64,000 bases of DNA, taken from assembly GCA_013202975.1 (NCBI GenBank), contig JABMQY010000136.1, positions 6,178 through 70,177 of the forward strand, in the 5' to 3' direction. Source of the stretch: Candidatus Saganbacteria bacterium (GTDB lineage: Bacteria; Margulisbacteria; WOR-1; XYC2-FULL-46-14). Each line of letters opens with the position of its first letter. The first letter of the stretch is position 1. Below are positions 1,238 to 4,816 of the stretch, in pieces. The position numbers were made by a program, and so were the translations under genes. The notes under the pieces are model-generated. The model was not told the DNA's origin. It did not search any database and was given only the letters and a program-made list of their open reading frames with translations.

Positions 1238-1243
1238 ATACGC

Positions 1244-1272
1244 ATTCTATCCCCCCCCCGGCCTCCTGTCAA
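1244..1272 (-). promoter_or_regulatory. Sigma70-like promoter TTGACA-N17-TAGAAT with a C9 (G9 on the coding strand) homopolymer in the spacer; drives 950..1237, ATG 6 nt after the -10
   Basis: The -35 and -10 hexamers are read on the minus strand. Spacer is 17 nt, of which 9 are a homopolymer. Confidence 0.5.
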
Positions 1273-1288
1273 CATTACAAAATTCGGG

Positions 1289-1322
1289 TGAAGTTTTTCT
1301 GATTTTATTAGGATAACAAAAT
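1289..1322 (+). promoter_or_regulatory. Degenerate copy of the TGAAATTT-N14-CGATAT motif (TGAAGTTT-N14-GGATAACAAAAT) followed by ATG at 1323
   Basis: Same 14-nt and 12-nt spacing as the other copies. It is part of the duplicated bidirectional cassette. Confidence 0.3.
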
Positions 1323-1469
1323 ATGAACGCAATTACTGTTCAACCTGCCGGATATTGGGGAAGGAGCGGAATAATTCTTTCCCCAAAAACCCTTAAGGTA
1401 GACTATAAAAACATTGATTCTCATAAAGCCGGACCGGGAAATAAATTTAGAATCCAAACTTATTTGTGA
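1323..1469 (+). CDS. Possible leaderless small ORF (48 aa, MNAITVQPAGYWGRSGIILSPKTLKVDYKNIDSHKAGPGNKFRIQTYL)
   Basis: ATG sits exactly 12 nt after the -10-like element. It is below the ORF-track length cut-off, and there is no other support. Confidence 0.2.
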   Translation: MNAITVQPAGYWGRSGIILSPKTLKVDYKNIDSHKAGPGNKFRIQTYL

Positions 1470-1635
1470 CATCATTTTCACTAAACTCTTAAAATTCTTT
1501 TGACAGAAAAATCTATTAATCGCAGATATTCTTCCATCTCATCAAAAACAGCTTCTTATGATCAAGATGTAAATCAGGTGAAATTTTTGAAATACGTACA
1601 CGATAAAATAATATCAATATTAGGAGGGAATTATT

Positions 1636-2895
1636 ATGTCACCAAAAATATCATTATCCTCAATCGTCAGGACGGCAGCAGCACAAGTAAGAAAAAATCG
1701 AGATCCTCGTCGGGGATGGAATACATGGAGACCAGCTTTTGAAGGCATGGGTTCCATTCCAAAAGAAATGAGTAGCTACGCAGCAAAGCCGGTATTTGAT
1801 AAAGAGGTGCTTCAGTTGCTCATGAGTAATGATGCCCCCATGCCTGATCTTGCAACAGTTGCTGTTGCCCTTTTTTACGGCGTTCCGCTGCTACGCGTAG
1901 AGGGTTGTTCTTTAAGCTTGCAATCAGATCGTATGCCACGCGCAATAGAAAAAAGAGTGAAGGACGGCATTATTTCTGTTCAAGCAACGAAACCAATTGA
2001 TGTCAACAAAGTGCTGGCATTTAACTTAGCAGTTTTAGGAGTTTCCGAGATGAGAACAATCAAAAGTCCGGACTCTCATGGCATGAGGGGACCATATTTT
2101 CGTGATGATAGAATAAACAAAATCCCAAAAAAGGTTACCGAACAAGTTCTCTCTTTAAGTAATGGAAAAGAATGCATAGATCCTCGTTCTGTAGAAGTAG
2201 CAAGGGATTTTCTCAACAAATATTTTCCAGACATACCACAAGATATAATTTTTCGAGATTTAGATGCTAAAGTAATGGCTTTTAATAGCGATGTTTTAAT
2301 AAAGACAAAGACCGTAAATCCAGAAAACATTGCAAAGCAAATCCTATCTCATAACCTTGCACGTTCATGCTACTCTTCTGAATTTGTTCCTTATGATTCT
2401 GTATCCCGGGCAATGCGTTCATTTGAAACATCTGATCCTGAAATAGCAGGAGGGATAATCAAAGCTATTCTCGAAGCGGATAAAATAGAGAAAAGACCAG
2501 GCCCTCATGATTCGAGTGTGGCTTTTTTTGCGGGAAAAGCCTTGTCGATATCTTATGGGCGTGGGTCTTCAAATGCCGATGCCGCTAAGGCAATCATTGC
2601 GGCCGGCTTAACAGATAAGAACCTCTGGGGCAACTCAAGAGATAAAATATTAGGAGAAACATTAGAACATCTTACTTCCGATAGTCCATGGCGGACAGGA
2701 GCAATAATTAAAGAATTGGGATTTGATGGAGAAACCGCTGGCAGGGTCGCATACCACTCAATGGTAGCTAATTATGGCTGGCCGTCAAGGATGGAAAGTC
2801 TACTAAAAGGCTTGGGAATAAGAACAAAAAAAGATAGAGTCGCGTTCGCATCTGGCTTTGGTGTTGGGATAGAAGAGTTAAACGGGGTCCTCTAG
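1636..2895 (+). CDS. Hypothetical protein (419 aa), no recognisable motif
   Basis: Long ORF with a GGAGG-like RBS (ttaggaggg) 6 nt upstream. Confidence 0.5.
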   Translation: MSPKISLSSIVRTAAAQVRKNRDPRRGWNTWRPAFEGMGSIPKEMSSYAAKPVFDKEVLQLLMSNDAPMPDLATVAVALFYGVPLLRVEGCSLSLQSDRMPRAIEKRVKDGIISVQATKPIDVNKVLAFNLAVLGVSEMRTIKSPDSHGMRGPYFRDDRINKIPKKVTEQVLSLSNGKECIDPRSVEVARDFLNKYFPDIPQDIIFRDLDAKVMAFNSDVLIKTKTVNPENIAKQILSHNLARSCYSSEFVPYDSVSRAMRSFETSDPEIAGGIIKAILEADKIEKRPGPHDSSVAFFAGKALSISYGRGSSNADAAKAIIAAGLTDKNLWGNSRDKILGETLEHLTSDSPWRTGAIIKELGFDGETAGRVAYHSMVANYGWPSRMESLLKGLGIRTKKDRVAFASGFGVGIEELNGVL

Positions 2896-3003
2896 GAGCT
2901 TATTCACAGGTTTCTCAGGTTTTAAATATTCTTCCATCTCATCAAAAATGGCTTCTTTTGGAATCATCCCCGCCTTCTTATATTCAATCAATTTTTCTTT
3001 CAT
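2878..3003 (-). CDS. Small ORF (41 aa, MKEKLIEYKKAGMIPKEAIFDEMEEYLKPEKPVNKLLEDPV) driven by the second poly-C promoter
   Basis: ATG 6 nt after TAGAAT. A decayed partial copy (..EAVFDEMEEYL..) lies at about 1500-1560. Confidence 0.35.
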   Translation of the reverse strand: MKEKLIEYKKAGMIPKEAIFDEMEEYLKPEKPVNKLLEDPV

Positions 3004-3009
3004 ATGATT

Positions 3010-3038
3010 ATTCTACCCCCCCCCCGGCCCCCTGTCAA
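3010..3038 (-). promoter_or_regulatory. Second copy of the sigma70-like TTGACA-N17-TAGAAT promoter, with a C10/G10 homopolymer in the spacer
   Basis: Near-identical to 1244..1272; read on the minus strand. Confidence 0.5.
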
Positions 3039-3054
3039 CATTACAAAATTCGGG

Positions 3055-3090
3055 TGAAATTTTTCTGCTAAGTTTTCGAAATATATATAG
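3055..3090 (+). promoter_or_regulatory. TGAAATTT-N14-CGAAATATATATAG promoter-like motif followed by AAAGGAG RBS and ATG 3105
   Basis: Motif copy; overlaps the divergent poly-C promoter cassette. Confidence 0.55.
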
Positions 3091-3104
3091 AAAGGAGATT
3101 ATAA

Positions 3105-3590
3105 ATGATAGTAGGAAAACCCCAGTTAAGGATGATGACCGGATCAATCAGGCTCATGCAGAAAAAAGAGGGACAACCACAACATAAGTGGAACAAAACA
3201 GGACAGATCTATTTTCATGTTGCAGAAGAGAAAGCAGAAAGTGTGGTTATCCAAATAGAGCGACCGGTTCTAAGAAAATTTGTAATGTACCGTGCGGCAC
3301 AGGAGGATCGCTCCCAATTTAACGCTGCGCTCGCATATTTTTCTTCCCCGGCTCCAAAAGAAATAACAAAAATGGGCTTTTCCTCATATGTGAGGAGCGG
3401 CCGCCCGAGAGAATTCGATTTTCCAGTAGAACTTCTTTTTGAAGGGCCAAGGGGAGAAGAAACGATTTATCAGGTAACCTGGGGAATTACCCATACAAAC
3501 AAACCACAAGGGATGGGGTTAATGTATAATTATTTTAGAACCGCCGATACCAAACTTGCAGGCACCGAAAACAGATTTAATCATTTCTAA
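3105..3590 (+). CDS. Hypothetical protein (161 aa)
   Basis: ORF with good RBS, downstream of a motif promoter. Confidence 0.5.
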   Translation: MIVGKPQLRMMTGSIRLMQKKEGQPQHKWNKTGQIYFHVAEEKAESVVIQIERPVLRKFVMYRAAQEDRSQFNAALAYFSSPAPKEITKMGFSSYVRSGRPREFDFPVELLFEGPRGEETIYQVTWGITHTNKPQGMGLMYNYFRTADTKLAGTENRFNHF

Positions 3591-3635
3591 TCATTCACAC
3601 AACTATCACAAAGGGCACGCTTAAAAAATTGAAGG

Positions 3636-3944
3636 TTATGCGCTCCAAGTAGGACTATTGCCAACAGTACAAATAATCACCGCGTTCCCACCCGTGTTAC
3701 AACCAGCACTTCCACCTCCAGTACATTCGTCTGGCATATCGCTCTCCGAATCAGGCCCGCTACCACCTATACATTCTAATCCATCTGCTATAGTCCCCGT
3801 AGTACAGCCTCCGACATCAAAAGCAGAAGGTCCAGTTCCACAATTTGCACCAAATGCTGGGTTTTTTAAAAAATGTATTAGTTTGGGTTCTGCATAACTT
3901 TTTTGATTTATTTTATTCATATGCTCCTCCATGATTTTTTTCAT
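3636..3944 (-). CDS. Small Cys/Gly/Thr-rich protein (102 aa, 6 Cys in repeated G-x-C-x-x-G context); start probably the internal Met at 3932
   Basis: Composition and repeat spacing like 950..1237. A sigma70-like promoter with a C7 tract lies immediately upstream. Confidence 0.5.
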   Translation of the reverse strand: MKKIMEEHMNKINQKSYAEPKLIHFLKNPAFGANCGTGPSAFDVGGCTTGTIADGLECIGGSGPDSESDMPDECTGGGSAGCNTGGNAVIICTVGNSPTWSA

Positions 3945-3970
3945 TATAGCCCCCCCAACCTACCTGTCAA
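3943..3970 (-). promoter_or_regulatory. Sigma70-like promoter TTGACA-N16-TATAAT with a C7/G7 tract in the spacer
   Basis: Hexamers read on the minus strand. The -10 overlaps the first ATG, so the gene probably starts at the second Met. Confidence 0.4.
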
Positions 3971-4816
3971 TTACTTGAGGATCTTTTTTGAAGAAAAACT
4001 ATTTAGCTGAAGATATTCTTTCATCCCGTCAAAAACCGCCTCTTTGGGAAGCATACCAACCAACTCTGATTCCAATATCTCTACTTTTTCTTCTTTTGCC
4101 CATTTTTTAACGGAACCGAAAACGTCTTTTAGGGATGTTTTTTTATGATCAGTTAAATTAATCGAAACTTGAGTAATTTTTCGACTCTCTAAATATAGCC
4201 CTAACGCCCGAACTCCTTCCCCTCGAATATTCTTTGCGATTAATCGGGCGATATCTATATCAGGTGTTTTCAGATTAACATTAAAGGCAATTAAAAAATC
4301 GCGGGCGCCGATTGCAATCGCCCCGGCGTAAGGATGCAGCTTATCTCCAATATCCGGCTGTCTATGTTTTGAGGAAAATTCATTTTTTAAAACCTTGAGC
4401 CCCCCCTTTCTAACATAAGGAAGATCAACTCTCTCAGAAATTTTTGCGGCATGCCCATACAAATAAGCCGGCAGAGCATGTTCTTTCCATAACATTTCGC
4501 CAAGAGTATTTGCGGCGGTAACTGCATTTTTCATCGGAGTGTTTTTTAGTGGAATAAAGGGTACAACATCAACGGATCCAAGAAAGGGATGTGCCCCGGC
4601 ATGTTTGTTTATGTCAATCAACTCGAGCGCTGCCGTAGAAAGCTCATAGGCAGCCTGGATAACTTTTTCATCATCCCCCGCAAAGGTTACGACCGTTCGG
4701 TTATGATCCGGATCAGAGTGAAAATCAAGAATTGGACAGGCCTTAACTGATAAAATTATTTGATCGATTAAATCGGAATCGCGGCCTTCTGAAAAATTTG
4801 GTACGCACTCAAGCAT
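3971..4816 (-). CDS. ftcD: Glutamate formimidoyltransferase (formiminotransferase domain)
   Basis: N-terminal [12 protein letters not shown] is the signature start of the formiminotransferase family. Confidence 0.7.
   Translation of the reverse strand: MLECVPNFSEGRDSDLIDQIILSVKACPILDFHSDPDHNRTVVTFAGDDEKVIQAAYELSTAALELIDINKHAGAHPFLGSVDVVPFIPLKNTPMKNAVTAANTLGEMLWKEHALPAYLYGHAAKISERVDLPYVRKGGLKVLKNEFSSKHRQPDIGDKLHPYAGAIAIGARDFLIAFNVNLKTPDIDIARLIAKNIRGEGVRALGLYLESRKITQVSINLTDHKKTSLKDVFGSVKKWAKEEKVEILESELVGMLPKEAVFDGMKEYLQLNSFSSKKILK

Follow-up and report, generated by a model that had tools for sequence, protein, structure and literature searches.

In Mycoplasma hyorhinis, the spacer of each vlp promoter holds a poly-A tract. 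Similar layouts occur in porA of Neisseria meningitidis and tp0126 of Treponema pallidum, where a poly-G tract between the −35 and −10 hexamers sets expression and a spacer of 17 nucleotides (nt) is optimal (PMC7864442); in N. meningitidis, tracts of at least 8 nt are usually variable (PMC5084427). Here, we describe a comparable layout in Candidatus Saganbacteria. The window, as the whole analyzed stretch of 64,000 nt is called below, is part of a 72.5-kb contig from a metagenome-assembled genome (MAG) of a Candidatus Saganbacteria bacterium (locus tags HQ564_10375 to HQ564_10410). Near its left end, a first-pass annotation had described a duplicated bidirectional promoter cassette with a C9/C10 homopolymer in the spacer and proposed it as a phase-variable switch. 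We found that the duplicated blocks belong to a family of four sigma-70-type promoters, P0 to P3, which, judging from their sequences and positions, are very probably real. Our best explanation, a tentative one with somewhat less than even confidence, is that the G-run in their spacers is prone to slip and may thereby tune the transcription of small Cys-rich peptides.

The duplication itself was confirmed. Positions 1244-1301 and 3010-3067 are identical at 55 of 58 sites (94.8%), and a wider similarity of 85% over 87 nt (block 1, 1215-1301; block 2, 2981-3067) reaches the first codons of the minus-strand open reading frames (ORFs); block 1 comprises P1, the first eight codons of the peptide gene Cys1, and a degenerate plus-strand octamer, TGAAGTTT, at 1289-1296. 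The 28-mer common to both blocks occurs at these two sites only in the 64 kb, with none expected from 100 shuffles. Read on the minus strand, each block has the anticipated arrangement of TTGACA-N17-TAGAAT with an ATG 6 nt further on. In P1 (1244-1272), TTGACA at 1272-1267 is followed by the 17-nt spacer GGAGGCC-G9-A, TAGAAT at 1249-1244, and, after 6 nt, the ATG at 1237; in P2 (3010-3038), TTGACA at 3038-3033 is followed by the 17-nt spacer GGGGGCC-G10, TAGAAT at 3015-3010, and, again after 6 nt, the ATG at 3003. Both sets of hexamers score 11 of 12 against the TTGACA/TATAAT consensus. The two homopolymers are likewise present (C9 at 1251-1259 and C10 at 3016-3025 of the plus strand), but they differ by a T/C substitution at 1250/3016 without any indel, and the spacer is 17 nt in both.

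A third, related promoter of the form TTGACA-N16-TATAAT with C7 had also been proposed, and it was found as P3 on the minus strand at 3943-3970, beginning immediately after the ftcD stop codon. Its TTGACA (3970-3965) precedes the 16-nt spacer GGTAGGTT-G7-C (C7 at 3950-3956 of the plus strand) and TATAAT (3948-3943), with hexamers matching the consensus at 12 of 12 positions. The start assigned to the second Cys-rich gene, Cys2, at ATG 3944 could not be upheld: this ATG overlaps the −10 hexamer (TATAATG) and is excluded as a start if P3 is active, and the start is therefore likely to be the ATG at 3920, behind GGAGGA. With this Shine-Dalgarno sequence and a leader of about 16 nt, P3 is the exception in geometry, unlike P0, P1, and P2. 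The fourth copy, P0, is found outside the window, 0.3 kb past its left edge, on contigs of the same population (L003:1499-1527, through the GTG to 1536; L numbers denote the other sequences compared). It stands directly after the Fic stop codon, reads TTGACA-AAGAGCC-G10-TAGAAT-AAGATC-GTG with a spacer of N17, and precedes a gene for a 75-amino-acid (aa) peptide. Thus, the four copies match the consensus hexamers at 11-12 of 12 positions with spacers of 17 (P0), 17 (P1), 17 (P2), and 16 nt (P3), and all four have the sigma-70-type arrangement of hexamers 16-18 nt apart, upstream of and directed toward a gene. In P0 (GTG), P1 (ATG), and P2 (ATG), the start codon follows the −10 hexamer after 6 nt, a distance expected of leaderless genes, and the predicted start geometry of P1 is leaderless.

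Such promoters exceed chance in the window, where sites with at least 11 of 12 matches to TTGACA/TATAAT number 10 against 2.0 expected, four of them within 821-3970. Among these sites are promoters of conserved genes, rpmH and XRE. The rpmH promoter reads TTGACA-N18-TAAAAT-N7-ATG. The XRE promoter (821-849, minus strand; TTGACA-N17-TATTAT) has an AT-rich spacer with no G-run, is conserved in L026, the closest relative found (ftcD 77% identical), and is the internal control, a normal canonical promoter of the lineage. In both genomes (744-850 and L026:7091-7197), the XRE-Fic promoter is followed by ATAAGC-N-GCTTAT palindromes, which are likely an autoregulatory operator of the XRE-Fic operon. 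A second and commoner motif, (G/C)TGAAATTT-N14-(A/C)CGATATATATA, was found 15 times in the window, always intergenic and always directed toward a gene; TGAAATTT-N14-CGATATATATA probably represents the predominant type of promoter in this genome. For several genes, the start codon lies 5-8 nt after this native motif; leaderless genes therefore appear to be usual in the genome, a habit that the geometry of P0, P1, and P2 fits.

Given that the promoter copies have diverged to different degrees, their comparison indicates which parts were retained. Between P0 and P1, the hexamers agree at 12 of 12 positions and the tract at 9 of 10, compared with only 4 of the 13 other spacer and discriminator positions, and P3 keeps its G7 at the same promoter position. 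The G-run has been conserved like the hexamers while the rest of the spacer diverged; therefore, it appears to be a constrained part of the promoter and is probably under selection. A run of this kind is not rare in itself: 0.49 G/C runs of at least 9 nt are expected per 64 kb, about 40% of 64-kb simulations contain one by chance, and two or more arise in 8.7% of Markov simulations. It is the position of the run that exceeds chance, as it occupies the same place in four of four paralogous promoters. A role as a Shine-Dalgarno element was ruled out, the run ending 13 nt before the ATG.

Tract length was compared among independent assemblies, namely the NCBI MAG, two Joint Genome Institute (JGI) metagenome assemblies, and one Logan assembly, in which L001, L002, L003, L004, L008, L009, and L042 cross tracts of the same population. 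P1 is G9 in 3/3 assemblies (window, L009, and L042), P2 is G10 in 2/2 (window and L001), P3 is G7 in 4/4 (window, L001, L002, and L008), and P0 is G10 in 2/2 (L003 and L004). Relatives lack the whole locus, which makes a tract comparison with them impossible. Contigs from two samples end 3-12 nt from G10 tracts. In sample 3300032731, P2 is unassembled, with one contig ending 3 nt before C10 and the other 5 nt past it; additionally, the Logan contig breaks off 5 nt beyond the G10 of P0. As an explanation of the contig ends, a simple deletion that would join 1189 to 2976 was considered and rejected: the join would be out of frame, and L042, from another sample, runs through 1189-1228.

The products of three of these promoters form a family of their own. 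Cys0 (75 aa, behind P0), Cys1 (950-1237, minus strand; 95 aa, beginning MEERSIVYSVPGLISFAVGG and then Cys/Gly-rich; behind P1), and Cys2 (3636-3920, minus strand; 94 aa from the ATG at 3920, with the ORF extending to 3944; behind P3) are paralogs with 37-38% identity, Cys0 and Cys1 being 38% identical. They have in common the leader (K/E)xLIxYxxP(G/K)LIxF, in Cys2 YAEPKLIHF, followed by a Cys/Gly-rich region. Gene callers start Cys1 at M22 (74 aa), yet the N-terminal 21 residues are conserved with the paralogs; this automatic start is probably wrong, and the conserved leader would begin at the leaderless ATG 1237. Elsewhere in the window, a more likely start for the ORF at 15436-15981 (plus strand) is GTG 15463, which follows a TTGACA-N17-TATCAT promoter at a distance of 8 nt. 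The N-terminus of Cys1 was also considered as a lipoprotein signal peptide, which was ruled out, as the paralogs have no hydrophobic core.

Homology searches showed a sub-threshold resemblance of these peptides to a single known family. Among the 18,950 NCBIfam models, Cys0 (E=3e-5, 24.1 bits) and Cys2 (E=3e-3, 17.6 bits; 14.4 bits from its shorter start) matched only TIGR04252 (ScmA), which Cys1 did not match. ScmA, a ribosomally synthesized and post-translationally modified peptide (RiPP) precursor, belongs to the SynChlorMet radical-SAM/SPASM cassette and is likewise small, with a leader at its N-terminus and a core rich in Cys behind it, but the Saganbacteria peptides have 75-95 aa against about 49 profile positions, their scores lie below the cut-off, and neither the 64-kb window nor L003 holds a radical-SAM, SPASM, or PqqD gene. 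The neighbors are ORFans, XRE-Fic, AbrB-PIN, and ftcD. In a set of 5.8e9 proteins, Cys2, Cys0, and the 419-aa protein of the island each retrieved nothing but themselves; for Cys1, phmmer on 1.8e9 representatives returned itself and one weak repeat protein; and the four island proteins had no match in Pfam, PHROGs, or PADLOC. No homolog of the Cys peptides or the promoter blocks was found elsewhere in protein, genome, metagenome, and viral collections. The exact block pattern had no match in metagenome and viral contig collections, the former evidently without the JGI samples that hold the locus; peptide-family profile searches of genome, metagenome, and viral collections gave pattern matches, none of which was confirmed; and the plasmid collection contained no match.

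The slippage that we tentatively propose would work as follows. The family core is TTGACA, 7 nt, G9-10, TAGAAT, 6 nt, and the start codon; in P3, an older variant, the run is G7, the spacer is 16 nt, and the start codon follows a short leader with a Shine-Dalgarno sequence. P0, P1, and P3 would drive the paralogous Cys/Gly-rich peptides, and P2 only a 41-aa remnant. The first transcribed nucleotide would be the A or G of the start codon, and the mRNA would be leaderless. A run of 9-10 G would be inherently prone to slippage during replication, and one G gained or lost would give a spacer of 16 or 18 nt and lower the transcription of the gene heritably and reversibly, an effect closer to that of a dial than to strict on/off switching. 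Of the phase-variable switch put forward in the first-pass annotation, what stands is that G9 and G10 lie in the range that is variable in Neisseria and that the layout resembles porA and tp0126, with the run inside the spacer in P0 (G10), P1 (G9), and P2 (G10), P3 having only G7. The contig ends beside G10 tracts and the differing G numbers of related phage promoters (below) also lean toward slippage, the former ambiguously.

Several observations weigh against this explanation. No tract-length difference was seen among the 2-4 assemblies crossing each tract, a weak comparison of near-clonal consensus assemblies with 4 single-nucleotide polymorphism sites in about 19 kb. All four spacers are 16-17 nt, near the optimum (G10, G9, G10, and G7 give totals of 17, 17, 17, and 16 nt), whereas a porA/tp0126-type switch would lead one to expect some paralogs with off-optimum spacers. 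A substitution accounts for the difference between C9 and C10 and leaves the length unaltered. The contig breaks at G10 are compatible with length heterogeneity and Illumina homopolymer dropout equally. In phages, the same layout is found with G far more often than with C (20 versus 3 in total), and one 208-kb phage contig keeps its G8-9TAGAAT core unchanged at −35 spacings of 15-18 nt. On the side of the peptides, all ScmA scores fall below the curated 35-bit cut-off, the radical-SAM motif CX3CX2C is absent from ORFs of at least 125 aa in the window, and no maturase was found in the 64 kb. Taken together, phase variation that is biologically used is plausible, but we regard it as less likely than not.

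About equally likely is that the G-run is a fixed, strand-specific promoter element, whether extended −10-like, a structural feature of the spacer, or a regulator site, in which case slippage would be only noise removed by selection. Such an element is supported by four diverged copies in which conservation of the tract equals that of the hexamers, by spacers kept at 16-17 nt, and by lengths that are the same in all assemblies. Viral contigs point the same way. In IMG/VR, the pattern TTGACA-N5-9-G8+-N0-3-TAGAAT had 12 matches and its TATAAT version 8, compared with 0 and 3 for the C-run controls; by family, our own count was about 11 (G) versus 2 (C), with a binomial p of about 0.01. The 208-kb phage contig holds at least eight copies of G8-9 directly abutting TAGAAT, seven of them upstream of ORFs, and its constant core with variable −35 spacing is more in keeping with a recognition element than with a pure length switch. 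The preference for G over C, together with this constant core, suggests that the G-run may itself be a promoter element.

These uncultivated-phage promoters resemble those of Saganbacteria in having TTGACA, a short AT-rich stretch, and G8-13 abutting the −10 hexamer, in multiple copies upstream of ORFs. They differ in their Shine-Dalgarno leaders, in spacer totals of 14-19 nt, and in the lack of any homology to the Saganbacteria blocks beyond the motif. Promoter families with G8-G13 abutting TAGAAT or TATAAT were seen in phage contigs L046 and L051 (IMGVR_UViG_3300015214_000001) and in L045, L048-L050, and L052-L060, several of which also have an upstream TTAACAAAA motif. However, closely related phage copies differ in G number (G9 versus G8, G8 versus G10), which speaks against a fixed element, and a run of 9-10 G is mutable irrespective of the role it mainly serves. 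Furthermore, the known cases with the same layout, porA and tp0126, are switches (PMC7864442), and the literature searched describes no promoter element of this G-run/−10 kind. That the G-run abutting the −10 hexamer on the non-template strand constitutes an undescribed element common to the Saganbacteria cassettes and phage promoters, read by RNA polymerase/sigma or a dedicated factor instead of or beside a slippage switch, is suggested by these motif comparisons but, on the whole, unlikely.

A less likely explanation still is that the G-run is a neutral passenger, inherited from one ancestral promoter that was copied with the gene family and has not yet decayed. The P1/P2 duplication is recent (95% identity), and G/C runs of at least 9 nt arise by chance in about 40% of the 64-kb simulations. 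Against this, P0 and P3 are old copies, with proteins 37-38% identical and about 30% identity at the non-hexamer promoter positions, and the run is still in place in both; long homopolymers are mutation hotspots and would be expected to decay fastest if unselected.

The genomic setting bears on a further alternative, namely, that mobile cassettes left the blocks behind as recombination or attachment scars and that the likeness of the blocks to promoters is incidental. The 72.5-kb contig also carries dnaA, dnaN, gyrB, gyrA, and rpmH and is therefore chromosomal. The relative L026 has the gene order mazG-ftsH-ftcD-XRE-Fic-valS with short spacers only, and lacks two lineage-specific insertions of the Saganbacteria MAG: one of 3.1 kb (851-3991) between ftcD and the XRE promoter, and one of 1.1 kb (L003:1490-2594, left of the window) between Fic and valS, with P0 and Cys0 followed by an AbrB-like/PIN toxin-antitoxin pair. 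All four promoters sit on these insertions; the cassettes are carried by two recent insertions flanking the XRE-Fic module. In favor of scars, both insertions begin with a block no more than 10 nt from the upstream stop codon (that of ftcD or Fic), the 3.1-kb island contains two pseudo-copies of the ftcD 3' end, and P2 drives only a chimeric remnant. Nevertheless, no integrase or recombinase was found in or beside either insertion and no inverted repeats flank the units; the island has the two ftcD pseudo-copies of an integrative element but not its integrase. Moreover, two perfect or near-perfect hexamers at optimal spacing with a start exactly 6 nt after the −10 in three copies would be unexpected of attachment (att) sites, and this explanation is very improbable. 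Finally, the idea that the homopolymers are sequencing or assembly artefacts, which the breaking of contigs near G10 tracts could suggest, is effectively refuted by the same tracts at the same lengths in the NCBI MAG, two JGI assemblies, and the Logan assembly.

Of the two ftcD remnants, one (1484-1555, minus strand) translates to EAVFDEMEEYLRLIDFSVKRILRV* and is 65% identical to the C-terminus of the resident ftcD. The other (2926-2960, minus strand) forms the rest of the 41-aa chimeric ORF behind P2 (2878-3003, minus strand), whose first 12 or so codons resemble the leader of the Cys family (MKEKLIEYKKAG) before the ftcD 3'-end sequence (GMIPKEAIFDEMEEYL) follows; this ORF is probably a decayed gene. 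Both pseudo-copies cover the last 24 codons or so and are closer to each other (FDEMEEYL) than to the resident gene (FDGMKEYL). This pattern suggests that insertion or recombination struck the ftcD 3' end repeatedly, although an integrase is absent. In the relative, the ftcD-XRE spacer (L026:6925-7015) holds two GC-rich repetitive extragenic palindromic (REP)-like hairpin repeats, CCCCGCGCTTTGCGCGGGG and CCCGTGCTTTGCACGGG, at the site that the 3.1-kb insertion occupies in the Saganbacteria MAG.

The bidirectional character ascribed to the cassette was supported in part, for one block at most. Block 2 has motifs on both strands: its plus strand reads TGAAATTT-N14-CGAAATATATATAG, a good match to the native motif, followed by AAAGGAG and the ATG at 3105. 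In block 1, the plus strand offers only the degenerate TGAAGTTT, with no −10-like part and no credible gene. As a divergent pair, block 2 has only the 41-aa remnant on its minus strand, and block 1 has a good promoter and a gene on the minus strand only. The other half of block 2 would supply the upstream part of the native-type promoter of the 161-aa gene (3055-3084, plus strand; TGAAATTT-N14-CGAAATATATA), whose upstream half lies inside the block. This gene, HQ564_10400 (3105-3590, plus strand), is divergent from P2 and encodes an ORFan with no homolog. The second ORFan, the 419-aa HQ564_10395 (1636-2895, plus strand), is all-helical by prediction, likewise has no homolog, and stands behind its own native-type promoter (1579-1608, plus strand; TGAAATTT-N14-CGATAAAATA). 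A PDB sequence search with the 161-aa and 419-aa proteins gave nothing significant, and single-sequence AlphaFold models reached predicted local distance difference test (pLDDT) scores of 38 (161-aa) and 40 (419-aa) and were unusable.

The native motif occurs on the plus strand at 1579, 3055, 8662, 9333, 13746, 15160, 16705, 31111, 32940, 36592, 52213, and 61709, and on the minus strand at 58202, 26053, and 24876. Short hairpins stand right after three of these promoters (about 36620-36650, about 58170-58140 on the minus strand, and about 61740-61775), with a ACCATTCGGT-like core (GAACCATTCGGTTC, GTACCATTCGGTAC). They may represent a 5' untranslated region element; no Rfam family matched them, and Rfam returned no RNA family in the window.

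These alternatives differ in what the locus would mean. If the tracts slip in vivo, contingency loci would extend beyond host-adapted pathogens to a free-living uncultured relative of Cyanobacteria, and what they control would be a family of genes of the secreted or modified-peptide-like kind instead of surface antigens. A G-run acting as a recognition element would be a new promoter feature common to a bacterium and phages. In either case, the analysis provides the probable start codons of three leaderless peptide genes that had been mis-called or overlooked, points to the coexistence of leaderless genes and two promoter types in Saganbacteria, and marks a recombination-prone insertion hotspot beside ftcD and XRE-Fic.

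Compared with described systems, the locus stands closest to porA and tp0126, with which it has in common a G-run of about 8-11 nt between the −35 and −10 hexamers and an optimum of 17 nt (PMC7864442). Those genes have measured within-isolate length variation with a measured influence on transcription, whereas for the Saganbacteria locus both are predictions. They also encode outer-membrane proteins of host-adapted pathogens, whereas here the products are small Cys-rich peptides of an uncultured environmental bacterium, apparently expressed from leaderless mRNAs. The T. pallidum tpr family offers a second likeness, as each of several paralogs has its own poly-G promoter tract and can be controlled independently (PMC7864442). 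The poly-G of tprE/G/J/L is situated immediately upstream of the transcription start site, and 8 G or fewer are permissive, whereas the Saganbacteria run fills the −35/−10 spacer. The mechanism class, a homopolymer-in-spacer switch, is thus already known, and the locus is plausibly a candidate member of it in an unusual organism.

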